Assembly: GCA_951406725.2 (NCBI GenBank) | Contig: OX597815.1 | Location: 100,440,001 to 100,504,000, forward strand | Reading direction: 5' to 3' | Length of the DNA: 64,000 nt | DNA from: Octopus vulgaris | Taxonomy: Eukaryota | In this document: piece by piece, positions 110 through 60,700 of the stretch | How the letters are laid out: each line of letters begins with the position of its first letter | How positions within the stretch are numbered: the first letter of the stretch is position 1 | Notes under the pieces: model-generated | Told to the model about the DNA's origin: nothing | Seen by the model: only the letters and a program-made list of their open reading frames with translations | The model's database searches: none | Position numbers and translations under genes: made by a program

Positions 110-302
110 AGGTTGTTACTCAGACCCAAATGAGCTCTGATCCATCAGATCTGATGCAAATTGCTCCAGTCATAACCATTTTCCTAAGACTACACATCTA
201 TTGTATCCTTCCATTTTCAAGATAGCAATATATTCATTTATAGAGATTTGGCTGCTATTTTTCAGCGGGTCGATCGATCACGTAGAGGCTCCCTTTTGTC
301 TT
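110..302 (-). mobile_element. ~220-bp repeat, minus-strand copy (others at ~5150, 5420, 5938, 6245, 10203, 10378, 14370, 15640, 18780, 19089, 22035, 22185, 29575, 30095, 30232, 30530, 31060, 34515, 34625, 34745, 42715, 48320, 55150, 60695)
   Basis: + strand reads GAGATTTGGCTGCTATTT..CAGC..GTCGATCGATCACGTAGAGGCTCCCTT, the reverse complement of the ribozyme-like head. Confidence 0.8.
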
Positions 303-1762
303 TCAGATGAAATTTCAGTATTTTAATATTCATAAACATAAAATTAGCCATTTTGTATGTACATCCATAATTTTCCAGAATAAGAGGACTATATATTACC
401 ACTGACATTGAAAGCATTTGACGAACATAAGATTTCCTTTCGTCTACTTTTTAAAAAACTAGATTAAGTCTACTCGAAATGGTGTTTTGATTCGTCAACC
501 TCTTATTTATGATAATGATATTAAAATTATAAAAGTGACCTAGAATGGAATTAGTACAACACAGAATTTCAAGAAACATCACTTGATAAGAATAATTCTT
601 TTATGTTACTTCAAAAATAAACAAATCACGACATAATAATAGTTGAGATAAATTAAACTGTTAACAATTCAGTAATTAATAAATTTCAAAAAATAGGATT
701 TTAAAAAAGTCACTATATTTGACATTTCGGGAACATTCTTTAGAATCCAAAAGAATGACTGGAAAAATTTTTGCTTCTTAAATCAATTACTCAAAATGCT
801 GAGTTACGTTGGCCGAATCCGATTATTTAAACTTCTACGAACCGGAGGTGAAAATGAAACGTGTGACCTTAAAACTGCTGTCGTCCCAGTGAAGCCTTCT
901 TTATTTCCTAAGTCAATGGTGTAGACATAACCTTCTGTAAAAGGTGTTGCTTTCACCGAACAAAAAGGTCAAATGAGACAACAAACGCAGTAGGTCAGGT
1001 AGTAAATATACACATTTAAATCCTAGAATTATGTTGAAGGATAATTAAATATAATGACCACGTTCAGTAGAGTGAACACAGGAGTTGATGGCTGGTACAA
1101 TAACCAATAAGCAAACTAAATGTATAGGAGGAGTAGTAGAATTGTAAGATTGTTCTTTCATTTAGTGTCGTCAGTTTCGAAGACTTCCTGCCCCACTTCC
1201 ATCACCACCAGTAGTAACAAACTCAACAGCCATTATTTCATCTAGCATCAATATCTTAACATGCAACATATTAATAAAGGTCAAAACGCTAAAGTTGGTA
1301 CCTGCACGTGCAACTACAGAAGCAGCTATTTCTAACCTCAGCTGCTCTCTCATACAAACCAAGGGCACAACAGCTTACTAAGAAACAGGCATTCAAAACC
1401 TATTAGTAACCCACATTTAAGTGCTTAGTTTTACCTTCAGGTCACGGCAAAGCAGAAAAACGGATCTCGGAAAATGAAACAATATGAAACGAAATCTTTT
1501 TAAAACCCAGCCAACGACAGTTTTACATTTCCATACATTAAGAGAGATTAATACAAATTAATACCGAGTTGGCAGTTATTGATTACTGCACTAGCTGGAA
1601 AAATATAAATGTACCGATATTTTTGGTTCTTCTAATGGCCTCATTGAATGAAAATTAAAAATTCCGGGTTTTACAACCAAGCCTATTCCTACATTCCAAA
1701 AATATAACCTTTCCTATATCCTGAAAACTGTTCTAGACGAAAGAACATCGTCTTATATAAGG

Positions 1763-1827
1763 GAATCAACGAGGGAGCATCCACATTGCTGATCGTTCGA
1801 CCTGCTAGAAACCGCAGCCAATTTCTC
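1763..1827 (+). ncRNA. Putative HDV-like self-cleaving ribozyme (decayed copy)
   Basis: P2 GAGGGA(1771-76)/UUUCUC(1822-27); P3 GCA/UGC; L3 UCCACAU; J1/4 GA; P4 CUGC/GCAG; J4/2 CCAA(1818-21); P1 imperfect, GAAUCA/UGAUCGUUC. Confidence 0.55.
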
Positions 1828-1966
1828 TCAAATCACACATTCTACCGTCCAAAAAGAGAAAGGATACACTCGGCAATGCAGTCCTGGAGACACAAAACGA
1901 CGAGATGGTCACAACTGACACACCCTTGATCAAAGATTTGATTAGTGTCGACCTCGGGTTAAACAA
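1763..1966 (+). mobile_element. ~220-bp abundant repeat, representative copy with an HDV-like ribozyme head
   Basis: Consensus RAGCCAACAAGGGAGCCTCTACGTGGTCGCTCGACCTGCTAGAAATAGCAGCCAAATCTCCCTCAAATCACACC...GGATGGTCACRGCTGGAATG..TTTGATCATAGGTCTG..GACCTGGGGCTAAACAAC. No pol III A/B boxes seen. Same orientation at ~2553, 7470, 8670, 14150, 20070, 21958, 26960, 27212, 51668 and 59290. Confidence 0.8.
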
Positions 1967-2817
1967 AAAACTATAAACGAAAGGGAAGGTGTGACCTCTT
2001 GCCTACCAATCAATTTATATTCCAAACAATGTTCAATGAGGTAAATTTAGATATTAGTTGTGTTTTGAATCACCTTAAAGAATAACCTCTGTAGTCAGAA
2101 ATATCGATTTTAATCAAAGGTCTTTAAAAATAACGACATATTAAAATGATTATATAAGAACCAACAAAGGTTGTTTCAAATGCATCTCCAATTTCACACT
2201 GAATAGTGTCGGTAGACTTCTTAAAACCTTTTATACCCCGCATTCATCATAAAAGGGGCTGGTAAACAGAAGAATAGTTAGTAGAAAGTGTAAAGCCCCA
2301 ACGTGGAAGAGATTTATGGGAAATGAAGGAGTGAAAGAGAGATTCAAGGTATGCATGGTGCTTCAAAAACTGTGTCCGATGTGTCCTTGAGACAAGGAGT
2401 AACAGGCATAAGACAACCCAAGAGCACTGACAGATTTTTGTACAGATTTTTTTTTAGTATATATTTATATATATATATTCACATACAGACACGCGTATAT
2501 AGTTAAATCAGACAATATATAAATAGAGTAAGAGCATATCTGCTATATGAACGAGCCAATGGGGGAAGCCTCTATGCCGTCGAACGAGGTGCTAGGAATA
2601 ACAGTCAAATATCCTTCAAGTCATATCTTCACCTCTTAATGAAGGACACATTGAGTAACGTAGTCCAGGATATGTATATCCTGAATAAAGTCTGGGATTG
2701 TGATGATGGCTAGAATGCATTTCATAACTCTCAGTTCAATACTGACTTAGAACAAACTTAGAGGATTTGACCGAGCTAAAAAAAAAAAAATTTTTACATT
2801 TTAAAAATGCCTTTCTG

Positions 2818-2819
<2 letters not shown>

Positions 2820-2858
<39 letters not shown>
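2820..2858. repeat. (AT)n microsatellite (one of many AT/CA/CT arrays, e.g. 21527-21565, 37025-37066, 37380-37490, 51605-51656)
   Basis: Direct inspection. Confidence 0.95.
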
Positions 2859-2862
<4 letters not shown>

Positions 2863-4241
2863 TCTGAATTTATAAAGTCGAAAATACAGAATAATATGCA
2901 TGCATGTTGATGCATAGGTTCTATGTTTTAATGCTATGTACGAATGAATGTGTGTTAATGTTATGTATATGTTAATATGTACATACACGTGTGCTAATAT
3001 ATAATACATGCGTGTTATGTATGTGTGCAGAAACCTGTATCTTTCACCATGAAATATTCCACATTCTTATTAAAGTGCTATCATGAAATCCAATCTAAAA
3101 GTACATCTAACACTCAACCAATTCTCTCCTCCATCCACCTATTCCACGGAATATTTCAGTTCGGCGATTTTTAATTCCAAATAAGAAAAAAGACTAGATG
3201 GCTAGATTAAACGTTTCTCTGAAGATATTTAATATATGACATTGCTCAGGAAAATAAAACACTTAACATCATTAATAGAACATATTTGGCCATCTTTCGT
3301 TTAAATTTTCTTTTAATGTTTTGCGTGTAACATTTCATTAGAGAATTTTTACATGAAATGGATGTTTTCTAAATGTAGAAATTTTAGTTTATTATCAGAA
3401 ACTTTAAAAATAAAGCATATTTTAAATAATCCTTGTGTTTATGAGCGGTGTATGCAATTTTATAAATGAAGTTCCAGCTTTCAGAGATATGAAGAGACAG
3501 GGATAATTTGTGAATGTAAAGCACACATTGGTTTTAAATAAAAACTAGTGAAGTGTCAATGTGGCTGGAAGTATTAATAATTATATTTTACAAGATGTGC
3601 ATTTTCACACCCAAAATCATGCATGTCTAGTGATAAAAGCTGATCAATGATATAAATGAAGGAAGGACACGAACAATGGCTGACGCTTTCTTACGCTAAA
3701 CTAGACAGACCTTCACATGGTTCGACAGTGAAAATTTACAAGATCGTCACAATCACTGTCATGGTTAGATTTTGTAAAACATGATAAGATGAGAAGGAAG
3801 CTTCAATGAAAATACAAGTATGAAATGCAACAGAAGGAAATATATTTAAAAGTGAAGAGTGTAACGAGAAAGCAAGGAAGAGAGAGAGAGATAAAATAAC
3901 CAACCTTACGACTGCCAACGATGTAGCCTCTACGAACTTGAAGGTCAGAGAGAGAAAGAGCAGGATTGCGGATGTGCAGTTAGAAAATGACGACACTTCC
4001 CGAGCACTGAAAACGTAAATTGACTGCTAGCAATTAACTTACTGCTAAACGTTTCAAAACAGATATTTATTTTTTGTTTTATGTTTATATTATATGAAAA
4101 AAAATTTAAATAGATAAATAAAACTGGAAAAAAAATTTATTCGTTTATTAATTTTAAGAAAAAAAATTTCCCCCCTCCCTCAATTCTGTAGTATAACGGA
4201 CATAGAATTTATTTCCCGACAGCCTCTTGCATGACATAATG

Positions 4242-4254
4242 AGGTCAAAGGTTA
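4242..4254 (+). promoter_or_regulatory. Nuclear-receptor DR1-like element AGGTCA-A-AGGTTA
   Basis: 12/13 match to the DR1 consensus, about 100 nt upstream of the candidate start codon at 4357. Confidence 0.3.
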
Positions 4255-4356
4255 CAGAGACAATTCCTCTGTCGTCCCCTCCCCTTTTAAAAAGTCAGAA
4301 ATATGAATTGCTACTATGAAAACTCAGAAAGATAAAATGATTATTAGAAGGTAGCA

Positions 4357-4363
4357 ATGCCTG
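4357..4363 (+). other. Candidate coding end of a first exon (ATG CCT G|gtgagt), in frame with SMSr exon 46865
   Basis: Strong donor CTG|GTGAGT. Phase 1 matches the open phase-1 start xAT GAA TAT TTA AGA GAG ATG at 46865, giving [14 protein letters not shown]. In-frame TAG upstream at 4345-4347. Linkage over 42.5 kb is inferred only. Confidence 0.35.
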
Positions 4364-7300
4364 GTGAGTGATTATATATTTATATGCATATATATATATA
4401 GTATATTTATTTGATTGTTTAATTCTTGTAATCATAATCAATATTATCATTGATATGATAAATATATATATAAATTGTTAATTTACTCTGCCAATTCCAG
4501 TGTCGGATTCAAAGATTCTTGCAACGTGTTTCTTTCAGATAAACACTCCCATCACATTTATGTTGTATTAATATTTCACACACCACTCAACTATATTTTC
4601 CAATACGTTTGTCCCCCGTTACCTTAGAGATACGAGCGCATTTTTTTAAAATCTTTCTAATAATTATTTTATTTCGATTCCTACATAAAATATCTTTCTA
4701 AGTTAAAATATTTTTGTTTTAAACCAAAGATCCATTTTTAATACTGTTCTAATATCATTACTTTTCGTCTGCTTTTTTTTTATTTTGTCAGCGATCTTTC
4801 TAGAAGATCTGACTTTTGAAGCAATTACAGAAAATACTTCGCTAAAATATATTACAGTCAGTTGCTGTTGCTCCAAAGTAACTTTTAAGTAATAATAATT
4901 TCTTGCATAGGCACAAGTCCTGACATTTGAGCGGTAGGTACATTTGATCGAATTGTTTCTATCACTTTACTGATGTTGGGCTTACATCAGGTATCCCTAG
5001 AAAACTTTTCTTCTTTTTTTTTTCCAGTAATATTACGACGGAGTTTCGGATTAGAAATCTCGAGGAGAATACGCGATTCCTAATCCGAAATTCTGCTAAT
5101 ATTTCATTGATATAGGTAGGAAGATTGTTTATGTTATTATTTATCACCATGGTCGAGGTGACTTTTTGATCAAGGCATTCCAGCTATGACCATCCCGTTT
5201 TTTTAAGCATGTATCAATGAGTTCATATCTCAATGCTTTTTCCTTTTTGATAACCACGTGAGTTGGCTATTTGGCTGCTGTTTCTAATTTGTTATTTAGT
5301 GATGACGCAACATTTCTTTTACTTGCTTTCATTCAAATTGTCACAGACTGCTATTAGCACTTCTTGAAAACTGAACTTTTAATCTAATGTTTGTCCCATC
5401 ATTCTCTCGATTATTGCGTCTCTTGGACAACTTATTATCCAATATATTCTTCCCTTTTCAGTGCGGTTGGTGTGATTTGGGGGAGATCTAGTTACTATTT
5501 CTACCACGCCGTGCTACTACACAGAGGCAAGCTTCCCTGTGGTACTACTTATAATTGAAAATTGAATCAGCTTATAAAATACCACCTAATCCTGCAAATA
5601 CACTAGTCTAATAATAAATATATAATCACAACACTGTCAAATTTAATAGTCAGATTCTTGAAAGAAATGTATGAAATAGCGTATACGCGCACACACGTGC
5701 GAGTGTGTGTACCTTTAGTCCATTGATAAACAACTCGTAACCAGCCCAGTTTTTCACTTCTAGTTTGTAAGTTATTGATGTCGTTTAATATACATCACTA
5801 TTATCCCTGAAGGAGTGATGAACGCCATAGCTTATATTGCCCATTCTAATAGATTTTTTTTTTTGGTATTCTTTTGGTCTTCATTTTTCTAACGGAAAAC
5901 AAAAACTGCCAAGCCACTTTCATCTTGACGGGTGTAAATGTCGTTTAGCCAGCCCCAAGTCAACTGTGATCGAAGCAGACCCATGATCAAAGGTATTATT
6001 TCTAAAATGATGATATAGTCTTTTTAGAGTGAATCTACGTTGTTTAACCTCCTGTCAGTTCTATTCAAGATTTAAGATCAATGACGTTGCAGTTCCAGCT
6101 ATTCTGTTTTTATACACATCCAAAATTATATTGTACAACGTGTCCGAATTTTGGTTTTAATATGAATATTTGGCTGTTATTTCTAACAGGATGAGCCTCC
6201 ACAAAGAGGCTTCTTTGTTAGCTTCTGTGTTCCCTAGTTTAAGATTGTAGGATGTGAGTTGTGGGTGATTTGACAGCTATTTCTAGCAAGCTGAACGACC
6301 ACTTAGGGGTTCTCTCGTTAATGTGTGTGTATGTATGTATATATATACATACAGTAAAGAATACGTACACTCGGTGTTTAGGGTTAGGATGTTTGTTACG
6401 CCGAAAACAGGTGGTGAACGTATTCTTTACCTATGCAATACGATCAACTAAAATTATCCAAGTAATTAGTAAAACAAAAATTCCATCAAGAAATGTTTAA
6501 AATGTTGATAAAAAAGCACTCAGCAAGATCAATTTATAGTAATTTCTGAAGAAAGTAGATTAGAGTGGATCTGGTCTTAAAAAGTAACCGATGAACCACT
6601 GGATGTGTTTCGGTCTTATCAAGCCTCCTCGGTGAAACCTACTCACTTGGTAAGTTAATGTGGAATATCAGGATTGTAATGCCAAAACACGTTCGTTGAG
6701 CCACTATTTGGCTTTAAAGACCGGGGCCATTTCAAGCTGTATTGTCTAAAACAACGGTTCTCAAACTGATAAATACCACCCCCGCTCTAAAAATATTAGT
6801 GAAATTTTGGATCTGTTAAGTTTGACTCTCAGATTTAAAAAATTTTTTTTTTTTTAATCTTTCTCTCTCTTAGTTTATGAGAAGACAAAATAAAATTTGC
6901 ATCCGCATACTTTTCTTCGCCATAGTACTTGCCTTTAAAGCGTCTGAAATTAACTAAACAGTTTGTCCACTCCGTTTAATCCTCTCAGCTAGCACTACCA
7001 CCACAATTCAGAAGCACTGGGCCGAAAATTTCGATCAGCTGATCTTGTTGGATTTATTTCCCATATTTGTTTTTTAGATCTTTAAACAGCTTTCCATTGA
7101 TGGAGTTTTAAACTACTAATTGCTTAGATAATCTCAGTTGATCGAAAGTTTTCAACTCGCTGGCATGTGATATCCTTTCTTAGTATTTAGTACACATCTG
7201 ACTAAGGTTTACTCTGTGAGACAGACATTTGTAGGAGTTTATTTGTTTACACTAGTTGCTCATTTGTTTTAGTTTATATTGTAAACTTGCGAGACTGAAA

Positions 7301-7975
7301 AAGAAATAAATCCATCTTTTCGTTAAATCTATTGAACTTTAAAAAGAAAAAAAAAGGTTGCTGCCTCGATTCGCTATATCTTTTCATCGTACCACTGTTG
7401 ATAAATAAGTACCAGTTATATACTGTAGGTTTATAGAACTTACTCGACTCAAATAGTAATAGAATGCAAGCCGTACATGCTAGAAACAGCAGTCACTCAA
7501 ATCACATCCTACCGTCTTTAAAAAAAAATAATAATAATGGAAGGATATATTGAACAGCATTGTTTACGATATAAAAAGATAGAACTGGTGATGAGAACGC
7601 TTTCGTTTAACTATATATGTATAGGCCACTTTATGTACATCCCCCATATTGGTGATGAGGTGGGGTGGGGTTCATCTCCACTTAAACGTCCCTAAAGCGA
7701 AAGATCTCCATGTGTGTAAATTCCTTTTTGAAATAAAACTTTTATTTCTAAAGTAATAGTTTCTTATCAAACGAAATATGGTTACTGCAGGTTAAAGTTA
7801 CCCATAAAAAAAAACTGTAGAAGTTGGGTGGAAATGATAGTCCATATTTAATCTCAACAGTTAAAGATAATCATTTATCAGTTGTACTAATACGACAATC
7901 ACTCTTCCTACATGTCACATGTGTTGTTATCGTCAATTAGTCCTCTATTGCTGTACTTGTTTGTATAGGAACGCT

Positions 7976-8182
7976 TATATAAAAAAAAAACTCGCTTCTA
8001 TTCAGTCGCAATTAGTAACTCAGTTTAATTTAGTTATCATTGGAAGTGTCAAAGTACTTGTTTAGATATAACTTGAATTCACACTTCACTTTTACGATTT
8101 GTAAAAAAAATAGTCCGAACTATTTAAGAGATTAATATTGTGGAATAATTTATTTTGTGCTATACACGGGAAAATGGTGAGT
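7976..8182 (+). promoter_or_regulatory. Candidate TATA + Inr core promoter and first exon (~8004-8176)
   Basis: TATATAAA at 7976-7983 and TCAGTC initiator with A at 8004 (28 nt after the first T of the TATA). Consensus donor ATG|GTGAGT at 8176/8177. Lies in the CpG-retaining part of the window. Confidence 0.4.
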
Positions 8183-9706: not shown

Positions 9707-10860
9707 TTTGCTGAGAGGCTTTAACTTCCTCATGAAAAATAGTTATTTATCCTCTCCTTACCCCGACATGCACTCTATTTAAACTAATAACTATAAGCTC
9801 GTACTATATACTGTGAAATTGTAGAATCTGGAAGAACTACTGACGTTCTGCGTTTGCAAATAGGAATATAAATAAACTCAAAAGTGGAACTGAATTTTAT
9901 GCTGCAAGATTCTAGTTGAATCATTTGTAATAATATGAGTGTTAAATGTTGGTCAATTTAGAAATACCAGTTATGAATTTCTCCACTTTTTACTTCAGAT
10001 ACAAAGAAGTTTAACAGAAGTATTGTTGTTGTTGTTACTGTTGAGTAACGTCTATCAATCTTGCTTGAACTGATCAAACAGTAAAGAGGCAGCTGATCAA
10101 CTGTTAGGAAATAATCGATCGGTTGGTGTAGCAGCCTAGATTCAGTATGCATTTTTCAGTTGTCTGGAATCACGTGGCATTCACTCACCCTACAGCATTT
10201 AGCTGTTGTTGCTTAGCCCTAAGGCATATTGAAACGTTCCAGACAAGATCATCCCCCGCTTGTGTTTCAAATAATTAATTCGGGACTACAATATTCAATG
10301 TGTGGCTTGAGAGAAAACCGGCTGCTCTTTCAAGCAGATCAAGCGACTGTGTAGTCTTTTTCCTTGATTTCATGCAATGTTTAATCTAGAGTCAATCCTG
10401 ATGGAGTGGACAGAACTATGATTAAAGGCCGTCCTGACTATACAGTCATTTCTTCTAAAATACTGTACTCTGGACATGATTATATTGTGTGCCCTTTAAT
10501 AAGACGGTAGGGCGTGGTTTGTGAGGAATTTTTATTTAGTTTGGTGCTGAAACTATCCCCACATTTTTACGACGATAACTGACATAGATAACAGTGAGTT
10601 CTTTTCAGCGCGTGGTAGTTTACTTAATTTGTTGAATCTGTTAGTGTCGGATGGGGTAGCACACACACACACACCGCGGAGTTTGGATTTAGTGTTGTGT
10701 TTACGATAATTGAGTGCTTAACGCATCTATTTCTTCAGTGTTATGAAGATTTTAACGTGTTAGATTCTATCTTATTATTGTTGGCTGGTTATTAGAGTTT
10801 TGGTCGCATTAGCATTTACGATAATTAAGTCCACAATGAGCTTAGAGCGGAAATTATATT

Positions 10861-18262: not shown

Positions 18263-20725
18263 GCTATTTTTATTAAGCTGTGAGCTAGCAGAATCATTAG
18301 CACACCAGGCATTTCATCTGTCCTTATGTTCTGGGTTCAAATTCCACTGAGGTCAACTAGCCTTTCATCCTGTCAGAGTCAATGAAATAAGTACTGAAAA
18401 TGCACTTGGGGTCAATATAATAGACTAGGCCCCTCCTCCAGATATTAGGCCTTGTGCCTATAATAGAAAGGATTATTATTTACATTCTGATTTCAAATCC
18501 TGCTGAGGTCATCTTTGTTCATCCTTCCTGGGGCAATAAAATAATGTACCAGTCAAGTACTGGAGTCATTGGTATCAATATAACCCCTTCTTCTCAAAAT
18601 TGCTGGCTTTGTACCTAAATCAGAAATATTTCTCAATTACCCAAGCAGTAAAGTGTCTGGAAATCTGGAGTTGTTGTTGTTTGTGAGAAGAGAAGAAATT
18701 TGTAAGATTAAAAATAATGTTAGTTCAGTTCACAGAAACTTTCTGACAAGAGAAGCAATAAGTATGCTAATAATCTTGATGATGATTTGAAAGATTTTGG
18801 CTGTTATTACTAACAGGTTGAGTGACCAGGTAAAGGCTACTCCTGCAGGCTTGCCATTGAGATTTTGCTAACAGCTGCACTATTCGTAAGCATCTTTTAT
18901 TCGCTTGTAGTAATTAAGTTTACATTATATTGGGATATAATGTCTTTTTGTTTTCTTTGTAAATAACTTTCATTACTGTCAATATTTAAATATACTAAAC
19001 AAAACAATTTACCACTAATATACTATTTATATTATGATATTGCCAGTGTAGATCTTGGCTATCAAACTGGAGAAAGAGTTGATGCCATTGTTGTGTAGCC
19101 ACTGGCCTATTCTCATCAAATAGACCTGTGACCAAAAGCATTCTAAGTGAAACCATCCTATCTTTTTAGGAACATTATCCAGTGTGTTCTCTCCTTAAGA
19201 CACTAATAGGTGATTTGAGGGAAATTTAGCTTCTATTTCTAGCAGGTTCAGGAACAACATTGAGGTTACGTTAATAGTTTGTGAGGAAAAGGTTTCACTT
19301 TAAGGTATATTTTTCTACTAGTAGAAATAGAATGACCAAGAGAAGGAAGTATTATGGTTACTTATTGATAGGTCATAAGTTCAAATTCAGTGTGTGTCCT
19401 TGTTTCTTTGACTAGAACACTTCATTCTACATTGTCTCACTTGTGTTGTCTTGGGTCTGTTGTGATGAAGCTGATATGTAGCACACAGTCAACCAACTAA
19501 CATAGTGTGACTCACAGACCTGATGTTCAGCTATGCCAGGATGCTGCCTAGCTGAGGACTTCACTGTATATGTTACTATATGATGCTAAATTGTTTGTGA
19601 TGCAGTGTAACTGTCTGGGCATATTGTTGTCTTTGTCTCTCTTGCTCTCCGCCCCCCCCTCCCTGTCCAGTCTATTTCTTTATGCCTTTAGATTCTGGAG
19701 GTATCTGGGGCAGAGGCAAGTGAGGTGAATACACTCAGTGTGACAGTTCTGTTCCTCTGTACTTTTGGTGGTGTGTATTCTCATTGGAAAGGTATTAAAT
19801 CACTAAAGAATGTGTCCTGCATTAGTTTACTGTCTTATCCAATGTGATATTCATTTCTCATTTACTTAAAACTGCAAAAACCAAAGACAAACACTGGCCC
19901 TTTAAAAACCCTCAAGTTATCTAAGGATTTACTATGCAATCATTTGGCCCATTAAGAAATCTCCCTAAAATCACTCTATAATATCTTTAAAAATGACAGA
20001 TATATTGGATTATGTAATCTGGGGTATGCTAGTTCTACTACCAACTAAAACAATTATATTATCAACAAACCAACAATGGAGGCCTCTGTGTAATTATTCA
20101 ACCTGCTAGCAATAGTGGTCAAATCTCTGTATTCACACCAAACTTTCTCAAAAGAAAACACATTTGCATAATTTGGTCCCAGATGTACTGTGCCTGAGAA
20201 AAGATTTGATCATGGCTGGAATACCTTTGATATCTCGTTTGCTCAAATAAATCTAACTCATGGCTAACAACAATGACAGTACTAACAATGTAAGCCTGTA
20301 TGTGGACTAACTGTTAGAAATATCCAAATCTCCCTCAAATCAAACTTAGTAACCTTTAATAAATAAAAGGCTGACCTTATAAAACAACAATACTATAAGA
20401 AAAAGAAACTGTTGGGTCCTTTTTTGACATGAACTTCAGGGAAATACTTTGACAAGATAAAATACTTGAATTATGCAAAAGGAAACTGATTTTTAAAGAG
20501 AGAATTTGTATGTGAAAATGATTTCTTAGGGAGATACAAAGCTTCAGTTATGTGAGGGAAAATGTAGGGATTTGAATAGACTTCATATCCTTCACATTAA
20601 TAATTCTGATAATTTACTCACAGAGTCAGCCTGATTCCCAAATGGTATGATATGTTGGGCTATGGCCTCTAGGAGTAAAGTTGAAAAAGTGTGACACACA
20701 TTCACATTTATTATATATATATTAA

Positions 20726-20944: not shown

Positions 20945-22492
20945 TAAAGTTGCAAAAGTGTGATTCACTGACATTCACATTTATTATATGTTTAATTTTG
21001 GGGAAATTTTATTTCAATTAAAGTATATTTTATGTGTGTATGTATGTATAGAGTGTTGGAAGTGGTGTACAGATATTGAATATTGAGAAAAGAGGAGCTT
21101 TTGGGGGGAAAAATTTTTATTTAGTCATTATTATTAGTGATTTCTTCTAACATTTATATAAATCAGGTTTCTTTTTTTCTTTTTTTTTTAAAGAGAACAT
21201 TGGGTTTTTTGTTTTTTGGGGTGAGGTTTCAGGACAATGGAGATGGATAGACAGACAGATAGATAGGTAGTGTGATGGAGGGGGGATTTCTTTTCAATTT
21301 GGAATTCGTTTTACCATTGTGTAGCTACTGGCATGAGACATGAGTTCAAGGATGGGGTGTGGCCATCACTAAAAGCATTTTTTTTCTTAAGGTGCCAAGA
21401 AGGAAGGTTTCTTTTAATTTCAAGATTTTGCATGAACAAACATTTACACAATATTTACATATTAGAAAAATAAAACCCACTGTTATATGGATGAGTATCA
21501 TGTTAAATATTGGGGAAGAGACAACATGCATGTGTGTGTATATATATATATGTGTGTGTGTGTGTGGTGACAGGAATTTCTCTCTCAAAGAGACATGGTT
21601 AAACAAAGTTGTACATTATCTCCCTCTTTCTCTCTCTCTCTCTCTCTTATTACTCCCACTGCCACCATCAACACTACTACTCTTAATAAAACATCATCAA
21701 CTCTCCCTAAATTTCTTTCTCTCTCTCTCTCTTTGCCACTGCCCTCACTGTCTCTATGCCTACTATTACTCTCACACCAACACAAGGAATAGTAGAAGTG
21801 TTGTTGAATAGTGTGACACACTGACACACAAAAATTTGGTTTTGCATTTTTTATATTAGAAGATGGCCTCAGATGAGTTGATGTCAGAAGATTGAAAATA
21901 GTGAGGAACTATGTTAATTATACTTTCACTTTCCTGAAAACCCAAACAATTCAAAATGAGCCACTGAAGAAGCCTTTGTGTTTGACTTGTTAGAAATAGT
22001 TGTCAAAACTCTCAACACACAGCTATTTTTAGTGGGGTATTATTTGAGGGAGTTTTGGTTATTAATTCTAACAGATCAAGCAACAATGTAGAGGCTACAC
22101 TCACTCATGCATCAAAAGCTAGGAGATCCCTTTAACAAAATTAAGTTTTTGATACATTATCCTTTACACTTCAAATCTAAGCTATGCTGTCTTAGCCCCT
22201 GAGTCAGTCCTGTTCAAAGAAACCTATTATTAAAACCATTCCAGTCTTGACCATACTCTATAATTTTTTTTATTATTTAAACTTTAAGCATTTGTATCCT
22301 TCCTCCTTTAAAATATGGTAGGATGTGTGATTTGTGGGAAATTTGGCTGCTATTTTTGCCAATCTAGTGATTTTCCCCGTTGGTTAATCAGCAGTTCTTG
22401 TTTAAACAGAAATCAGTTCTGATCCAGCAGACTTGTGTTCTAAAGTATTGCAACTGTGGCCATCCGATCAGTGTCTCTGGGATTATTATATA

Positions 22493-22981
22493 CAGGGGTT
22501 GGACAAAATAATGAAAACACCTTAAAATTTCAAACAAATTTATTGTAATATGAGGTAGGACTGCCTTTGGCAGTAATTACAGTTTGAATTGTTTCCAAAA
22601 GAATTTTGTCCATTCTTCAGCTAAAACAGTCTCCAGTTCTTGCAGTGATGATGGTGGAGGATATCAACTCCTTACTTATTTTTCTAAAATGCACCAAAAA
22701 TGTTCAATAATATTGAGATCTAGGGACTATGGTGGCCAGATAAGATGTTCAACTTCACTAGAATGTTCTTTGTGCCGACAATTTGACCTCTTTGAAAGTT
22801 CGATAGATCTGTCATTTTAATGAATTTTTTCTGATATCTGAAAAGAAACAGTAATTTTAGCAAAACATATTAAGCAATACTAATAATAAATCAAAAGACA
22901 AAAATAAACAAGCTTTTGATGGTTTTATAGATATTTCAAAAGTATGATTCTAGGTGTTTCCATTATTTTGTCCAACCGCTG
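22493..22981 (-). mobile_element. Tc1-family internal-deletion derivative (489 bp)
   Basis: 29-bp TIRs CAGGGGTTGGACAAAATAATGAAAACACC / GGTGTTTCCATTATTTTGTCCAACCGCTG with left TA. Relic WPP*SLDLNIIEHFW...LQELETVLAEEWTKI. Confidence 0.87.
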
Positions 22982-26482: not shown

Positions 26483-27279
26483 TCAATTATATGTGCTCCT
26501 GTAGTAATTAGTTTGGTGCACATTTTATCAGTCTTCTTTATCAAGTGGTTAACTTACATACCTCTTTCAGTCAAATTCCCTTTAATGACACATCTTTTAA
26601 GATATTTACAGTGTTATACACAATATAGATATTTACAATGGGCTTCCATGTAGTTTTCTGTCTACCAAGTTTTAACCCCAGGATGTTGATCAACCTGTGA
26701 TTATAGTAAAAGATGCTTACTCAAAGAACTACATAGTGGTATCAAACCAGGAATCACGTGGCTGTGAAGTGAACTTCTTCCATCCATTTTGATTTTATAC
26801 TTAATTATTATTATTATTGAGAATAATAATGTATAAAATGTAAGGCATCAGTTTCTGGTTACTAATTAGTTATTTCATGAAATTTTTTTTTAATCTCATA
26901 CTTTTTAACTTTGAGTATCCATCCTACTTGTAATTATAACAAGCAAAAAAAGGAAATTCCAAATGCTTGCTGGTCTGCCAGAAATAGCTGCTAAATCATA
27001 ATCTGCCATCTTAAAAGCAGGAACACATCAGATAATGTAGTCTTAAATACTCATAAAAAAACCAGATGGTCACTTTGATCATAGATTTGTTTCAGTATAT
27101 TTGGCCCGGGGCTAAACAACACTCCTTAAAATAATAAAGCTAGTGTAAAGGAAGGGGCTGAACTAAAGTCTGTCAAATCAGAATGACGTGAGATAATTCA
27201 ATTGAGTTTTCAAGCTGACAAGGGAGTTTCTATATGGTTGCTTGGCCTGCTGGAAATAGCAGCTAAATCTCCTTTAAAC

Positions 27280-28218
27280 ATCACTGTTTGTAAGCTTTGG
27301 ACATATAAGAGGTGTAGCAGTATCACAGGAAGGTTAACTGAGAAAATGACCTTTATGTGTGGGTACAATAAGCACTAAAAATATGCAAATAGACTCTCTC
27401 AAATGCTTGGGTGTGGGATCATTAGAAGTTGTAGATAGCTTCTGTTCCTAGGCAACTAAGTTAGCAGTAGGGGAGGAAGTTGCTAGAATAAGAACAGGCT
27501 GGGCAAAGTTCAGAGAGCTTCTACCTTTGTCGGTAACTAAGGGCCTCTGCCTCAGAGTGAAAGGCAGATTGTATGATACCTGTGTATATATAGCTGTGTT
27601 ACATGGCAGTGAAGCATGGGCTTTGACTACAGAGTATTTGTGAAGGCTTGAAAGAAATGAAGCTAGCATGCTCTGCTGGATGAGCAGTGTCAGTGTGCGC
27701 TCACAACAGCGTGTAAATGATTTAAGAGGAAGACTGGGTATAAAACGCATCAGATATTGTGTGCAAGAGAGAAGACTGCGCTGGTTTGGTCAGGTGATGC
27801 CTATGGTCAATGACAGTTGCATAAAGAAGTGCCAAGCTCTAATTGTGGAGAGTACCTGTGGAAGGGGTAGAATGAAGTGGTGAGAAAGGATTTTCAGATG
27901 CTGGGCCTCACAGAGGAAATGACAAGGGACCGGGAGTTGTGGCAATTTGCTGTACTTGAGGAGATATGTCAAGCTAAGTAAAATTGCTGTCAACCATACA
28001 TAGAGCTTCCCTTTACAGGTGTCAGTGCCACATAAAATGCACCCATGCCAGTAGCACATAAAAAGCACCCAGTACACTCTGTAAAGTAGTTGGTGTTAGG
28101 AAGGGCATCCAGCCATAGAGACATGCCACAAGAGACAGTTGGAGTCTGGCCAGATCTAAGTCAAACTGTCCAATCCATGCCAGCATGGAAAACGGATGTT
28201 TGATGATGATGATGATAC
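27280..28218 (+). mobile_element. Decayed RTE 3' fragment (same family, includes part of the PHD finger)
   Basis: CKLWTYKRCS, LEVVDSF, WAKFRELLP, RRLRWFG and LGLTEEMTRDRELW; shared 3'UTR and GAT tail. Confidence 0.88.
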
Positions 28219-31200
28219 ATTATTGGATAATGTAATCCCCAAATGCACTGTATTTGAAAATCAAACAAAAAATAAGCTGATCAAAACTGGAATGTTTTTT
28301 GATGATAGGCATTCCAGCCAATATAGTTATACTTAACCATTTCATTATGATGACTTATTAACACATTTCCTTCAATAATGTCAGATTTTTAAACAACAGC
28401 AGTAATACATTGCTCTCTGTATTTGAAATTTTATTGGTGATAAAAGAATTCAGTTCATTTAGAAGAGTTGTTATTTATTTGAATACAGCATAAACACTGC
28501 TCTTATCAAGAATACAGCTTTGCATCTCGCCCCATGAGGAGCACATAACTACAGCCCTTGCAAAGACAATAAACGTTAAGCTCAGTATCACTGACAATCT
28601 CTTCTGGTGAACAAGCATCCCTAATATAGCTAAGATTGTAACCTAGCCTTTCATCATCATCATCGTTGTTAAACGTCCATCTTCCATGCATTCATGGATA
28701 GGACAGTTGACAAGACCCGGCCATGTAGAAAATTAACCCAAGGCTACTGTATCTGTTTTGGCAAGGATTTTATGGCTGAACGCCCTTCCTGACACCGACC
28801 ACTCCACAGAGTAGACTCAGTGCTTTTTTACATGGGACTAGCACAGGCAAAATTAGTTTGGGCAAGATTTTTACAGCTAGATGCCCTTTCAGATGCCAAC
28901 CACATTACAGTGTGGACTGGATTCTTTGAACATGGCATCAGCAGTGGCTGGGTAGCCAGGTAATTCACAAGACAAGGAATTGTGAGACAAGCAAGACACT
29001 TGTGTCAGAGGATGAAAGTTAGTGTGATAAAGAGACAAACACAGAAGTAGGTGTCTTGCCACAACAGAGGGGGCATTTTCTCTTTAGAAAATTACTGGTC
29101 TTTTACAAGGTTCAAATAAACTTCCTACTTCTGGAATGGTGCTGCTTCTATGCACAGACATCTTACAGTGCATCCAGGGAACAGTTACTGATTTGCATAA
29201 AATCACTCACAGATCCTCTCTCTGCTTATTGGAGCCAACTGTGTTGTACCACCTACACTCAGTTATTTTCAGCCTCACTCATCTTGACTTGTCACCTATG
29301 TTGTGTACAACCTCTCCCCAGGTCTAGCACTATCCACCCCATCCAATCCTTTCTCCTCAAAATGTAAAAATTTTCTGGCGTTCCCTCCTAGCAATTGTCT
29401 TTTCTGCATATGTTGACTTGCAACAGTTTCATAGGAACATTTTACTACTGAATCAATCTTGCCAATCTGTGTGTACACGTGTGTGTGTGCATGCACATGC
29501 ACACACACTCACACATACACACACTTGAAATGTTCCTAATCAGTCAGTGACCAAATTCTCCTTGTGTGTTCTTATTTATCCCAGGTAGTCTTGATCATAT
29601 CAAGCAGGCCCACAAAGGTGCTACAGCTGTGATAATCCCGGCTGATGAGTGATTTTTTTTTCTGGTTTTGCTTCTATTTAAAACAGTTTGATATGAGGGT
29701 GATTTAGCAACTATTTCTATCAGGTCAAATGACCATGTAAAGGCTCTCTTTTAGCCATAACTTAATTATACAAAACTGAGATGAATATCACGAAGGAAAG
29801 GATAAATAATCCAATGTTTTTCTCCTCCTCCTCCCTCCTTCCACATTGTTGCAACCAAATCATGTCTCATCAAATAAGATATTCACTGAGTTGTTGCTGT
29901 TGATAATGAATTGAATATTGGATGGACTCTAACACATGAATCATCATACATAAACCATTATCAACCAGCAGGGTTTTACAATATGATATAGTGTCAGCAC
30001 TTTCTGTTTCTTCTTCAGGTCCAGAAGTTGAAGTCAGAACTGCAAGATAATGACTCACTGTTAATTATACAGCGTTGTTGTTGCTTTCCCCGTGCACAAT
30101 TTATCTAGGACTATATCATCCAATGGTTTTTTTTAAGGTAGTTGGTGTGATTTGAGAGAAATTTGTTTGCTATTTCTAGCAGATCAAGTGATGACATTTT
30201 GGCTCCCTTATTCACTCATAATTACTTGATTGTTGTTATTAACCCCAGGTCAACTGGGGATTGAGTAAACCTGTCACCAAAGACATTCCAGTCAGTACCT
30301 TCTCTTTCACATTAGATATAGTTTAGAAATACAATTACCGATGATGATAATGTGGTTTGAGGGATATTTGGCTGCTATTTCAAGCAAGTAAAACAACTAA
30401 GTAATGACTCTTTGGGTTATAATAGTCTGAACCAACTAGAGTGAAGTGTCTTGGCCATTTGACAAAACATGACACCAGTAACAGAATACAAGTGCTATCA
30501 CATTTTAGTTACTGCAATGTTGTTACTGATTAGCCCAGAGTACTCCTCATTGACCAAACCAATAATCAAAGCATTCCAGCTGTGACCACTCCATTGAAGT
30601 GAGATATGACAGCTATTTGTTACAGATCAAACAACCTCATTGTGGCTTAGGTGTGTGAAAATTTACACTTAAATCTTTTCAATCATGTATGCCAGTTTCA
30701 CAGAATGAAATGCATATTTGTCTGCGTAATGTTTCTTTTAAAGCCAGATATATTTCTGGATATAACTTGCTATGATGTTAGTGGTTTCCTGTTACATCCT
30801 CTAGTACCACATAAAAAGCACTGGTGCTAGTGCCATGTAAAAAGCACCCAGTACACTCTGTAAAGTGGTTGGCATTAGGAAGGGCACCTAGCTGTAGAAA
30901 CCAAGCCAAACCAGACAATGGAACCTGGTGTAGCCTCTGGTTTTACCAGCTCCAGTCAAGCCATCCAACCTATGCCAGCATGAAACAGACATTAAATAAT
31001 GATGATGATGAATTAAATGAAAAACTTTTAATTTTTAATTGAAATAAGAATTGTTTTCTTGTTAGGTTAGCTCTGTGATCAAAAATATTCCCAATATGTT
31101 CTTATTGAAATATTTTCTCCTTTTTAAAACGGTAGTGAGATTTGAAGGAGATTTGGCTACCATTCCTAGCAGAATGTTTGACCACAAAGAGAATAAATGA

Positions 31201-34126: not shown

Positions 34127-37032
34127 TGTTCATTTGTTTTTTAATATATCAGTTGGGACATATTTACTTCATTTTGGATGTTGTTTAACCTCAGGTGAAT
34201 TATGTTCCAACATTTTAGATGATATGTAGGACTGCAGTATTTTCTTTTCCTATTTAATCCTTTACCATTTAAAGCAGCCATATTCAATCCAAATAGTCTT
34301 CCTGTTTTATATTCAAACATAATACAAGTAGATTTGGCCTCTCACGCCTACCTTACAATGTCCTTTTGAAAGTAAATATAAGCACATCATTGAAATCTTA
34401 AAGCTACAAGATAATGAATGTTTAATTCAAAGCAATGTGAATAAATAAGCAATATATTTTCAGAATGATAGCAGATCAAGTGGTTTCCTTCTTCTAAAGT
34501 AGGTTTGGAAGTTTGTTGTTTAGCTCCAGGTCAATCCTGGTCAAAGTGACTTATGATTATATACATTCCAGCATGATCTTGCTGACTTTTGTAATAATGG
34601 TGAGCTGCATTGTAAAATTAGCTGTTGCTATTTAACCCTAGGTCAGCCATGGGTGAGCAGACCTATAATCAAATGTCTTCTAGCTGAACCATAGTATCTT
34701 TTGTAAAAACAGTAGACAAAGCGTTATTTAATTAGTCAAATTAGTTGTTGTTATTTGACCACATGTCATCTCTGGTCAAGCAGAAGAATGATCAAATGCA
34801 TTCTAGTGTGACCATGTTGTCTATTATTTTTAAGACTGCATCTAAAACTACATTTACGATCTCTCTCTCTCTCTTTTCTTCAAGATAGGAAAGTGTGATT
34901 TGAGGGGTGGTTTGGCTGTTAGTTCTAGCATGTCAAGAGACAGTGTAGAGATATGCTTGTTGGCTTATCCTGAGATTAATTAAATAGTTCACTGAATAAT
35001 TGAAATAAACCAATGAATTTATAAAACAAATATATATTTAAAAGTTGGTAGTGTCTGATGCAGTGATATATTTATATAAACATTTTATGTAAGGAAAAAC
35101 ATGACTTTCATTAGGATTATATTTATATATTTTATATCTTAAACTGCCAAATAATATCTGTCAATAAGGCTGATTAGGAACCAGCTGAAAAGAATAGCAG
35201 CCAAAGTTGTCCGGTTTATGAATTTAGTCATCTATTTAAAGATATGAAATGATCTATAATTGGTATTAAAGTAAGTAATGCTTATAATTAATTAAACTAA
35301 ATTAGCTTTTCAAAAACAACTTATACCATTCACCTGTTCTTTTTCTTATTTTAACCCACTCTCCAACACACTAACACATTTGGATTAATCCTGGACAGCT
35401 ATTCTGTCTTGATACAAATTTCACCCATAAGAGTACAAAGTAGTCTGGCTGCTTTTATAGACTGTGCTACAAAAAAAAAATCTATAGATATATTCTGTAG
35501 TATAGCATAGCATTGAAACAAAACACTGTTAACGCACCAGTAATTCATTAATTGGACTGCCTGCTTTGTCTTCATTCTATCTCTCTCACTCTCATACATA
35601 CATGCTTGTCTTCATTCTATCTCTCTCACTCTTGTACATACACACACATATATATATTCATTGCAAATGTGTGTTTAATTTCTCTACCTCCATACAGCTA
35701 GCTTAGATGGTATTATGCTGTAATTCTGCTCAAGTGTTGGTGTATACTTAATAGTAAACCTGATTAATGTTCTTAATAGATTACTTGACTGAATACTTAA
35801 ATAATCAGAGCTTATATATATATATATACACACACACACATACAATATATTCATGCATATATTGTGTGCCTGGTAGACTTAATGATGACTTGGTTTAACT
35901 ACTACTACTTCTACCTGACCCTTATGTACTTTTAACAGAGACCACTCTGTAGCAAGCCTTCAGGTTAGGTCTTGAGTTTAAGGACAAATTCCTGCTTTCC
36001 TCTAACCTGTCTTAGAAGTCTGGTAAAAGGTCATCCCATGATTAAGTCATAAAGAAAATCATAAACACACATACATTTTTTGCCACTATCTTTTATATTA
36101 TTCAACAATCATAAACCCTCTTCAACAAAGCAATTACGATTATTAGGATTTTCCTATTGATATTTATGTAAGACCATATTAGTCCAGCTATTAGTCCATT
36201 AGTACACTAACAGCCAATTTCTGCTGTTATGCTTGCTTTCAGGGATTTTTGTGAAAGGGAAGATATTTTGCTTTACATCAATATATCTTATAGAAAGTTA
36301 TTGTGGAAATCTTATCGATACATATTGGATTCACATGTATACATATGTATATTGTGAGTTTTTTATCTTAATGTTTTATATATTATCGTCGTCCTCCTCA
36401 TCATCATCATCGTTTAACATCCACCTTCCATGCTGGCATGGGTGGGATGGTTTGACAAGAGCCAGCCAGACAGAAGGCTGCACCAGACTTCTTTAACAGT
36501 TTTGGCAGGATTTTTACAGCTGAATGTTCTTCCTAGCACCAACCACTCAGCAGAGTGGACTCAGTGCTTTTTATGTGGCACAAGCACAAGCAAGGTTTTT
36601 ACAGCTGGATGCCCTTCCAAATGCCAACCACTTTACAGTGTGGACTGCATGCTTTTGACACCTGCACAGACTGGGTCACCAAGTACTTGCAAGACAAAAA
36701 ATATTTCTTTTGAGAGGGGAGTACTGGAGGAGGGGATTTTGTATCGGTTGATGAAAGGTTATAGTGAGACAGTCAGTAACAGGTGTCTTGCTGTAGAGGA
36801 GGTATAATGCTACCTGGCCGGAGAAAGAAAGAGAGAGATCAGGAATGAAAACAGAAGCAGGTGTGTTGCCACAAAGGAAATACATGGTTACCCAACCAGA
36901 GGGAAGTGCAGGAGAAGGTGAGAGACACCAGGTTGGAGATGGTGGTAAAGTGCTGGGCATGGGGGTCAAAATAAAAATGCGATGGTTGAGTAAAGGAAGA
37001 GGGAGAGATAGATGGTGGCAAGTGCCAGGGCG

Positions 37033-51661: not shown

Positions 51662-51964
51662 CCATACAAGCCAGTGAGGGAACCCATAGTGATCACACTT
51701 GAAATAGCAACTAAATCCCTCAAATCATACACTTAAATAAAGAAGTTTACATAGCACAATGTAGTCTTGTATATACAAAGAGATGAGATAATGCCAGCCG
51801 GAATGCTTTTGATGATTGATCTTGTTGATTGGTGCTGACAAGGGATTAAACAACAATGTTAGAGTACTGACCATATGGAGAAAATATTTATGGAAGTTGG
51901 TTTTGCTTAATCATTGACCGCACAGTTCACTTGATTTTTATTAAGTTTTTTATTTCTTTTTCAG

Positions 51965-57716: not shown

Positions 57717-60700
57717 AAAAATTTTTGAAATGATTTGAACTGGTACAGAGAAAAGAGTTAAAGAGTAATAATTCAATAGTTTTGGTTAATTAATTCCAGC
57801 AATACAAAACCCCTGTGAAATAATCCCCTTTCATAAATCACCAAGATAAATTATTATAGCATATATCTTTAAGTTTAAAAGAAACTGGCTTATCAAGTTA
57901 GTGTTGACCTCTGACTTATGGAGCTAGTGTGCAGTGGATGGGTAGAATGCTAATTGTTGCTTAACCCTGGTCAGCCCTAATGGAGTAAACCTGTGATCTT
58001 CAGAACCTGAACTAACTCTTTTTGGTGTTTACTTATAACTTATTTCACTTTTATAATTGATGTATTATTGTCACTGAATCTCTGAATTTTTACAACTGAA
58101 TTTTTACACTGAATTTTTACAACCAATATAAAATCTAAAACAGTGTATCAAATTCAGAAACCTACACAAGCATATACATATATAACTATTTCTTTACTAC
58201 CCACAAGGGGCTAAACACAGGGAGGACAAACAAGGACAGACAAACGGATTAAGTCGATTACATCGACCCCAGTGCATAACTGGTACTTAATTTATCGACC
58301 CCGAAAGGATGAAAGGCAAAGTTGACCTCGGCGGAATTTGAACTCAGCGTGCTAACGTCTCTGCCAACTTGCCGCCTTCAAAGCATACATATATAGCATT
58401 ATCATCATCATTTACAGCCAGCTCCTTTGCTGGTATGAGTGATTTCTTGTTCAAAATTTTACCTTTCTTCATCTGATACAAGATCACCTCCTCCAATGAC
58501 CACTCCCCTTTCAAATGATCTTTGTTCAAAATTCCTGCCCAGCTAGACAAGTAAGAAAACCATTTTCTCACTCCTACATTCCATTATGATTTCTATGACT
58601 GGATGTTAACAGAAGTTTACAAACCACTTTACAGAGTATAATAAGAGAGTTTTATTGTGGAACCAACACTTGAGAGGCTGTCTTGTCTTCAACTAGTCTG
58701 AAGGGCATCCTTTCTTGTCTCTTTTTATGCATCAACCACTGTTTTTTGCTTTTTCCCTTGCAAGGTATATTTGATGTCTAGCTTCTCTTTCAGGTATGTT
58801 CTATTGTTCTCTGCTACCCACTTTCTTCCAGTCCTTTGAAGCCTTTTTGTTGTTATAGGTTAGAGAAGGCTGAAAAACAGTCAGCATTGGTGAGATTTGA
58901 TAAATACTGCAGGCATTTTGTCTGATACCGTAACAGTATCAGAACAAAAATGCCAGCAGTGTTTCTCAAGGTAAAGGTAAGTTATGACAATATTATGGTG
59001 GTTATGGGTAACTAGAGAATTGGTTGTAAGTAACAAGTGATTAAACTTGCAATAAAATTCTAATTAAAACTTTTTATATATACACACACACACGCTTTGT
59101 TCATGGAGGAGCACTCTCTTGTTTTGCTTTTTTTAAATCAAAGTGAGGCATAGGACAAAATAGGTTGGAAAACACTGCTCTAATGATTCTGTTAATCAAG
59201 TGACTTTTTTTTCCGCAATGATAGGAATTCTTGGCTTTAAACTAAGGTCAAAATGTTGGCCTAATTCTCTACAATTGTAATGTGACAAGGAATGAGTCCC
59301 TACATAGTTTTTCAACCTGCTAGAAATAACACCCAAGTTTCCCTTACTGTTTTAAAGAAAGAAGGAAATATGGGATAATGTTGTCACAAATTTTCAAAAG
59401 ACAGGATAGTTTTGGCTAGAAATCCTTTTATCATAGTTTTACTAGATTAAGGCTAACCAGAATCTAAACAAGAACATTGAATAATGCAGTCCAAAATGAC
59501 CTTAAACAGAAGGAATGGTCTTGAATGGAACAGCTTTAATCATAGATCTGCCCAAACATCAACTAGACACTATCCACTAAGAGATCTTTCAAGTTCTCTA
59601 TTTTAAATAAATTTCTGTCCCCCACCCTATCCTTTCTGCAAATAATAGAATGAATACAAAGTTACTAGTGCTGATCACTTTATAAGATTCAGAACTCATC
59701 ATCATTGACTTTTAACATCTACTTTCCATGGGTTAGAAGATTTGACTGGAACTGGTAAGTCAGAGTTGCACCAGGTTCCAGTCTGATTTTGGCTTGGTTT
59801 CTACAGCTGGATGCCCTTCCTAATGCCAACCACTCTGAGAGTGAAGTGGGTGCTTTTTACATGTCACTGGCACAGATGTTATGTGTCTATAAATGCTATG
59901 TCTGTATATCATCATCAGATGCCCAACACCTACATACTCATTTTCTTTAAATATAAAATAGCACTTCATACCAAAGATAATACTGAGTCACATTTTTGGG
60001 GGGATTTTTTTTCTTTAATGTCTTCTTCATTTAACAATTCACCATCCTAATCCTACAAACCCACCCACTCCTGCAGTTTACATACGACAAGAAAAAAGTT
60101 GTCTCATGTACAGCACAATTTATTGCATGACTCCTAACATTAGAATCAACTTTAAGGGAAATAAATCTAGCAAATAACAATGATGAATTTTTCATCCTAA
60201 TATCAATTTCCCCACTGAAATGTCTCCATAGAATCCTGAAATTTTTCACCAGGTTAAGAATTATAGGTGTATGAAATCTTAATTTGTTTGGTATATTGAG
60301 AGAAAGAATGACACTGTCCATGACTTTTGCAAGAATATGTGTGACATGTATGGGGAAATGAAGGAGAAAGCAATGACATTACTGCAGTAGGAAACAGCAA
60401 ATTGAGTTTTTTATCTTCAGTTCTAAAAAAAAATATCTGGTTTAAATACATGCAACAGCATGAATGCCATAAAAATTACATAAGAACCAGTAATGTTAAA
60501 CTGGATGATGGATAAAAATATGTTGACAGTCTTTAATAGTTTCTCATCAATTCATAGATTAAGATTACTGAGATAATTGTTGCATCTGATTAAGGGTTAA
60601 GTGAAAATGTAGAGGCAGAAATATAGAGAAATTCAGGTTCACAAATGAATGTTTGTACATATTCCAAAACCTAGGTAGATAGATAAATAGTTGTTCTGTT

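Follow-up and report, generated by a model that had tools for sequence, protein, structure and literature searches.

An old, abundant octopus repeat with a predicted HDV-like ribozyme head and an Ingi-type LINE context

How does a short, non-coding repeat that lacks polymerase III boxes come to be strewn through an animal genome? The question is raised by a 64,000-nucleotide stretch of the Octopus vulgaris genome (hereafter the window), for which a preliminary description proposed that a ~220-bp repeat, present in about 30-40 copies, is a non-autonomous retroelement with an HDV-like ribozyme at its head, which cuts itself out of host transcripts. Here, we follow the repeat through the window and the genome, examine the predicted fold of its head, and compare it with Ingi-type LINEs and with a young family sharing the same fold.

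An old dispersed repeat with a sharp 5' start

A profile grown from the window copies matched the window 43 times and the reversed window not at all; its refined version gave 46 matches, 16 of them near full length, again with 0 in the reversed control. The repeat is dispersed, measures ~215 bp and carries the consensus 3' end GGGGCTAAAC(AAC)n, in agreement with the size, number and ending first proposed. It occupies 6,271 of the 64,000 window bases, with 30 matches on the minus and 16 on the plus strand, and the copies are clustered. Thirty-eight of the 46 lie within window 1-35000, where younger repeats are scarcer, and younger families dominate 35000-64000. Other window families reach a self-BLAST depth of up to 15, a figure obtained by a different method from the 46 profile matches of the old repeat. 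A BLAST search with the copy named in the preliminary description returned only 5 further matches, because the family is old.

Across 49 random 10-kb regions the refined profile found 38 matches covering 4,755 of 490,000 bases (reversed controls, 0), 9 of the 38 lying in the 11 regions kept out of profile training. Extrapolated to the 2.80-Gb genome (227 contigs, the window lying on a chromosome-size one), this corresponds to ~2x10^5 full or partial copies that make up ~1% of the Octopus genome, and exact-pattern counts allow, as a rough hand estimate, a copy number a few-fold lower. The density of the repeat in the window is ~9x the genome average. Long copies (140 measured) differ from the CpG-restored consensus by a median of 31%, the least diverged of them being mostly at least 25% away from it, and a search for young dispersed copies with exact patterns returned old copies alone. 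The old-family copies of today are decayed, neutrally. Target-site duplications were above control in 0 of 30 old copies, as is expected at 30% divergence.

No tRNA gene was detected in the window, and the consensus contains no exact pol III A or B box (one-mismatch look-alikes are present), so that the claimed lack of pol III boxes holds good. A tRNA-derived SINE was considered and ruled out, there being neither a tRNA head nor exact A/B boxes. The main octopus SINEs, given as tRNA-Core and tRNA-Deu in the extract of PMC8967140, are likewise short, abundant and dispersed, but the old repeat differs from them in having no tRNA head or pol III boxes.

From 5' to 3', the element comprises a head of 65 nt, a short segment, a linker rich in A, and a 3' half in which a stem-loop is predicted ahead of GGGGCTAAAC(AAC)n. 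In the named copy these parts are placed as follows:

1762..1969, +: the named copy, ~23% diverged from consensus
1762..1767, +: position of the P1 5' strand; +1 (consensus C, here G) is the predicted cut site
1771..1779, +: P2 5' strand and P3 5' strand
1780..1786, +: loop L3, 7 nt, its conserved G changed to A in this copy
1787..1801, +: P3' (lengthened in this copy by 4 inserted bases), P1' (1794-1799) and J1/4 (1800-1801), in which A1800 is the P1.1 partner
1802..1817, +: P4 hairpin, in the consensus 6 bp with a GAAA loop, in this copy 4 bp
1818..1829, +: J4/2 with the would-be catalytic C (1819), then the P2' strand
1830..1850, +: segment whose consensus form bears a weak resemblance to the 3'-terminal motif of Ingi family A and of the young family, then the A-rich linker
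1934..1954, +: position of the 3' stem-loop predicted from the consensus, decayed in this copy
1955..1969, +: tail, consensus GGGGCTAAAC(AAC)n

Lacking the G in loop 3, with an insertion beside P3 and a shortened P4, the named copy is probably inactive. The predicted 3' stem-loop is likely to be the site recognised by a LINE protein. Further loci, which form part of the 46 refined-profile matches, are:

111..297, -: near full-length copy
2548..2753, +: near full-length copy
5132..6322, -: five clustered copies or fragments (5132-5327, 5393-5535, 5939-6035, 6039-6225, 6233-6322)
10203..10531, -: two neighbouring copies
18781..19284, -: head fragment (18781-18852) and near full-length copy (19087-19284)
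19914..20365, +: three copies or fragments, head-to-tail
21954..22493, both strands: four copies or fragments
26936..27286, +: near full-length copy (26936-27121) and head fragment (27211-27286)
29567..31192, -: five copies or fragments
34513..34970, -: full copy, then two 3'-half duplicates
51665..51857, +: near full-length copy between SMSr exons
59278..59558, +: near full-length copy and 3' fragment

The host gene of the SMSr/SAMD8 exons (46843-47505, ~54950-55120 and ~57240-57574, all +) is recognisable from the first of them, whose protein is 100% identical to the Octopus sinensis sphingomyelin synthase-related protein 1 cluster. Contigs of four runs (several presumed RNA) placed on window 1000-9000 gave no starts or splice joints.

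The 5' end of the element is sharp and coincides with P1. In 56 copies with a 5' junction the flanks are unrelated up to -2, with A preferred at -1, so that homology does not run well upstream of the predicted cut, and the common sequence begins at a CpG-decayed C (C+1). Moreover, 91 of 171 matches start within the first 20 model positions, which is unlike the randomly truncated ends of LINEs. The preliminary description had homology starting at the predicted cleavage site, which is correct as to a sharp start at P1 but not as to the letter: the start is C+1 (window 1762), not G1763. Hence, P1 consists of C1-C5 paired with G30-G34. The L1Tc and SIDER ribozymes, in the extracts of PMC3185411 and PMC4035085, are also cut before C1.

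The predicted fold and its fate among copies

The HDV elements occur in the claimed order in the CpG-restored consensus, and the letters quoted for them are found at the quoted places. The head is predicted to form a nested double pseudoknot in the order P1, P2, P3, L3, P3', P1', P1.1, P4, J4/2, P2'. The reservation about a short P1 was justified, as the stem comprises five Watson-Crick pairs (C1-C5 with G30-G34) followed by a C6.C29 mismatch, a length that lies within the range of R2 ribozymes. P2 joins G10-A15 to U60-C65; P3 is built of two C-G pairs and of G16.U28, the latter in competition with P2; the 7-nt L3 keeps its conserved G; P1.1 is the single pair U21-A35; P4 has 6 bp; and J4/2 contains C54 followed by AAA. 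In another register, P3 shrinks to 2 pairs, P2 grows to 7 pairs and P1 spans 7 positions. At the P2/P3 junction the consensus is one letter shorter than Ingi family B, the young family and the arrays described below, so G16 can serve either P3 or P2, one of them only. According to the extract of PMC3774820, the P1 stems of R2 ribozymes measure 6-7 bp with frequent and tolerated mismatches at the top, one R2 ribozyme is active with a P1 of 4 nt, the L3 G matters, and a C-C mismatch in P1 is the proposed cause of a nearly inactive mosquito ribozyme. A one-pair P1.1 is described for the L1Tc ribozyme (extracts of PMC3185411 and PMC4035085).

An HDV-like descriptor, authored with the fold already known and thus lenient towards the consensus fold, accepts the consensus from position 1 and rejects its reverse strand, while none of 20,000 dinucleotide shuffles passes; the fold is far beyond chance. 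Real dispersed old copies are all rejected (182 of 182), in accord with the earlier caution that most copies are decayed (~30% diverged). When both strands of 2.5 Mb of retrieved DNA were scanned with the descriptor, two separate matches reached a score of at least 14, the better being the head of Ingi family B and the second probably chance. Neither the window nor an array nor an Ingi-B head with a mutated P2 matched a ribozyme in Rfam; this says little about the old repeat, because the last of these, the comparison head, was missed as well. The HDV-like fold predicted for the consensus is credible, with self-cleavage as its putative activity.

In neutrally decaying copies, covariation is not expected. 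Compensatory changes among copies had nevertheless been put forward as support for the fold, and we compared 265 copies with shuffles stratified by divergence, leaving out all arrays and the loci chosen by one head pattern (five loci chosen by another exact pattern, kept out of an earlier covariation run, were in the training set of the profile); the p values are uncorrected. Both-side changes numbered 45 vs 46.0 expected in P2, 19 vs 18.6 in P3, 34 vs 27.9 in P4 (p 0.09) and 60 vs 51.4 in P1 (p 0.03, uncorrected), that is, without significant excess in P2, P3 and P4 and with a marginal one in P1. Paired cells were slightly high in P1 (p 0.04) and P4 (p 0.02), both uncorrected. As to the individual examples, C40 and G49 of the quoted P4 change are unlinked (odds ratio 1.16, p 0.83), and the quoted P3 change GCA/UGC adjoins the 4-base insertion in the named copy, which makes it alignment-dependent; these examples are pairs of common transitions, mostly chance. 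An association between G2 and C33 (odds ratio 4.2, p 0.01) is ordinary among all position pairs and may mark a subfamily. C54 is retained in 130 of 183 copies, the same as neighbouring Cs, and, since it decays like other Cs, it is not under selection now.

Ingi-type LINEs, a young sister family and head arrays

An RNase H search gave 8 matches, 7 of them in three non-LTR families with RNase H and a C-terminal zinc finger. All three of these Ingi-type families end in (AAC)n, and the end of family B, GCTAAAC(AAC)n, is common to the old repeat. The fullest view of family B comes from one locus:

L169:3300-7990 (G000 C10): near full-length, decayed family B LINE with an HDV-like head and an (AAC)n tail

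This copy contains a 2A motif, PHD fingers and an RT, with an endonuclease recognised by eye from motifs; RNase H was found in family B copy L134 and in family A copy L130. By domain content, family B fits an Ingi-like LINE, and the Ingi features given in the extracts of PMC3708506 and PMC13708176, namely one long frame with an N-terminal 2A, an endonuclease, RT and RNase H, agree with the families seen here. The 5' end of family B forms the HDV-like fold in 4 copies, and the old head has the same fold as the Ingi-B head with no sequence match to it. Other family B copies (L168, L170, L172) have inverted 5' ends.

An autonomous LINE sharing both ends with the old repeat was sought through RT, RNase H and Ingi protein searches, and none was found; in particular, none of the three Ingi-type families carries both ends. 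The best RT matches belong to CR1-like and RTE-like families with other 3' ends, and a young, abundant CR1-like LINE (L107-L129, ~950-aa frames, (ATT)n tail) dominates them. Within the window, we take the 577-aa RT frame at 39813-41546 (-) to be RTE/BovB-like and the piece at 14735-15226 (-) to be a CR1-like fragment. Flanks of 36 head-only and 29 tail-only copies share only other common repeats. Beyond its last 13 letters, the old 3' half resembles neither Ingi-A, Ingi-B nor the young family (p 0.38-0.99); there is a weak likeness between letters 66-85 and the terminal motif of Ingi-A (17/20, p ~0.045). The partner LINE has probably died out or decayed beyond recognition.

The search for Ingi-B heads also uncovered a young non-autonomous family of ~205 bp, with at least 2,206 copies, which lies outside the window:

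L290, L291, L297-L329, e.g. L305:1499-1705: young family

Its copies stand a median of 4.5% from consensus (35 copies), and 19 of 29 have target-site duplications of at least 8 bp. At the 3' end it matches the last 26 letters of Ingi family A (25/26, p 0.0005). This tail and the duplications indicate that an Ingi route for short elements operates in this genome. The young head starts at G1 and shares P3 and L3 with Ingi-B; it has no P4, a hairpin-rich J1/2, and a weak P1 at the true 5' end (duplex -4.6 kcal/mol). Its sequence is no more like the old head than expected by chance (p 0.49). Another repeat that carries GGGGCTAAAC, younger than the old one and unrelated to it, occurs at window 58207 and at L306, L312 and L318; in 3 of 30 young-family copies it sits at an identical point, a sign that it may prefer certain targets.

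Comparison of the three heads is more telling than comparison of decayed copies. P2 reads GAGGGA/UCCCUC in the old family, GAGGGC/GCCCUC in the young one and GAGAAC/GUUCUC in Ingi-B; P1.1 is U-A in the old family vs C-G in Ingi-B and the young family; and two extra letters stand between CNAA and the main P2 helix in all three. Read by eye across these three families, the pairing of P2 and P1.1 is kept through both-side changes, and this conservation between families is, as far as aligned letters can tell, the best structural support for the predicted fold.

The head also occurs by itself in tandem. A 30-letter pattern from the head has 92 exact matches, and 87 of them fall on two contigs, C29 and C30, where most stand 107 bp apart:

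L006-L030, L228-L233, L237, L269-L285 (C28-C30): arrays of 107-bp, also 91-103-bp, units, at dozens of loci

The unit consists of the head and a (TATG)-type linker, repeated from a few to at least 66 times, units being mostly ~90-96% alike, and carries one extra letter at the P2/P3 junction. All 191 tabulated units have lost the L3 G and have G.A as the second P1 pair, and 96 of the 191 have a G.G mismatch in P4; some other arrays retain the L3 G, and the units of L277 pass the descriptor. Arrays end anywhere in the unit, several continuing, by eye, into the 3' half of an ordinary copy, and the ribozyme-free 3' half is arrayed on C28-C30 too (L234-L236 and other loci). Tandem arrays of several other repeats (units of 68, 173 and 184 bp) are found on the smallest chromosomes as well. 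At least half of the words of an array stretch are present in 16 runs under 7 organism labels, all of them contigs.

The head-only arrays are probably later, DNA-level satellites, DNA amplification being the simpler reading. Like the non-LTR retrozymes, tandem hammerhead repeats described in the extract of PMC7229834, they consist of tandem units with one ribozyme-like fold each, but they are HDV-type and not hammerhead, most of their cores are broken, their end points vary in position within the unit, and a ribozyme-free 3' half is arrayed on the same chromosomes. With broken cores and ends anywhere in the unit, retrozymes were judged an unlikely identity for the arrays as a whole. That the young 107-bp arrays, at least those like L277 which retain the L3 G and five of the six P1 pairs, give rise to transcripts that are cut to unit length, and that they spread by way of RNA as a delta-ribozyme counterpart of the hammerhead retrozymes, appears to us very improbable. 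If it were true, the arrays, the 10^5 old copies and the young family would together make a natural library of Ingi-type HDV ribozymes.

Origin, rival readings and significance

We consider it fairly probable that the old repeat was a ribozyme-headed, protein-less element, self-released and copied by an Ingi-clade protein. A master copy would have been transcribed by polymerase II inside a longer RNA; this RNA would have cut itself before C1; an Ingi-clade protein would have bound the 3' stem-loop and (AAC)n of the product, and insertion would have followed through target-primed reverse transcription. We infer these steps, namely cleavage, read-through transcription as the source of the RNA, and a partner LINE, from the biology of L1Tc and R2. 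On the octopus side, the analysis shows the repeat, its sharp 5' start, the predicted fold of its consensus, relatives with the same fold and tail type, and neutral decay. The main idea of the preliminary description, a non-autonomous retroelement with an HDV-like fold at its head in place of a pol III RNA gene, holds, and the repeat is well supported as a fossil of this kind; its present-tense cutting is given up, as the family is old and 0 of 182 copies pass the descriptor.

Alternatively, the head could have come down from an Ingi 5' end with a ribozyme that was no longer strong, or no longer working, in the master copy, the start of the RNA being set by an internal polymerase II promoter. 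Pr77 is both ribozyme and promoter starting at +1 (extract of PMC3185411), and the young family spread despite its weak P1 (-4.6 kcal/mol); the old consensus has a short P1 with a C.C mismatch and lacks a letter at the P2/P3 junction. Yet the L3 G, the U-A P1.1, the catalytic C, P2 and P4 are all intact in the consensus, P1.1 was preserved through a both-side change relative to Ingi-B, and a 4-nt P1 suffices in an active R2 ribozyme (extract of PMC3774820). We regard this reading, a vestigial ribozyme with an internal promoter, as unlikely.

It is more doubtful that the element is a hybrid, in which a ~90-nt ribozyme module of Ingi type was joined to the 3' end of another mobilising LINE clade (e.g., RTE). 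Such a composite would match the way the element splits at the A-rich linker into head-only and tail-only copies and arrays of both, and letters 66-85, weakly like the Ingi-A terminus, look as though a first tail had ended there; moreover, R2/R1 hybrid SIDEs are known (extract of PMC3414825). However, GCTAAAC(AAC)n matches Ingi-B, the CR1-like and RTE-like 3' ends seen, which take in part of the RTE families, are (ATT)n, (GATA)n and others, and the flanks of the 29 tail-only copies hold no common LINE sequence. Finally, a chance fold in a decayed repeat, such as a LINE 3' UTR fragment or a pol III SINE, would accord with the missing Rfam match and the unconvincing covariation among copies, but is largely refuted and scarcely credible given that 0 of 20,000 shuffles pass the descriptor, the fold begins at the first shared base, 91 of 171 matches start in the first 20 model positions, and there is neither a tRNA nor an exact pol III box.

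Under the favoured account, self-release followed by copying by an Ingi-clade protein, the old repeat would belong among NARTc, RIME and the R2 SIDEs, a class already described; it is built like a SIDE. In the extracts of PMC3185411 and PMC4035085, NARTc/L1Tc, RIME/ingi and SIDER1/2 resemble it as short, non-coding elements with an HDV-like head from C1, and the trypanosomatid elements (Pr77 head, L1TcRz) share its one-pair P1.1 and Ingi-clade context. The octopus repeat differs from them in residing in an animal genome at ~10^5 copies, in its 5-pair P1 with a C.C mismatch, in ending in (AAC)n and not poly(A), in having no parent found, and in its fold being a prediction only. The Drosophila R2 SIDEs and R2/R1 hybrid SIDEs (extract of PMC3414825) likewise combine a 5' ribozyme with a LINE 3' end and are non-autonomous; they are rare and confined to rDNA, whereas the octopus repeat is dispersed and makes up ~1% of the genome. 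Bipartite non-autonomous LINEs of the RTE, Ingi, Vingi and R2 clades, linked to 5' ribozymes and polymerase II transcription in the extract of PMC5786205, also have two parts and no RNA-gene head; that extract names no octopus family, and in the octopus repeat the head is mapped as a ribozyme fold. A literature search directed at octopus and molluscs gave, among the entries listed, no description of the old repeat, which may be catalogued already in Dfam or Repbase.

The mechanism itself is not new; the old repeat stands out by its abundance and by having a sister family that is still living. To tell release by a ribozyme from a start at a promoter, no case is better suited than this young family, whose copies are intact and bear target-site duplications and which makes a better experimental target than the old one. 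The three octopus heads form a series in which the minimal length of P1 and the function of a U-A P1.1 could be tested. The described examples come from trypanosomes or are rare rDNA inserts. If cleavage is true, a ribozyme-headed element without a pol III promoter would have reached a SINE-like ~10^5 copies in an animal.
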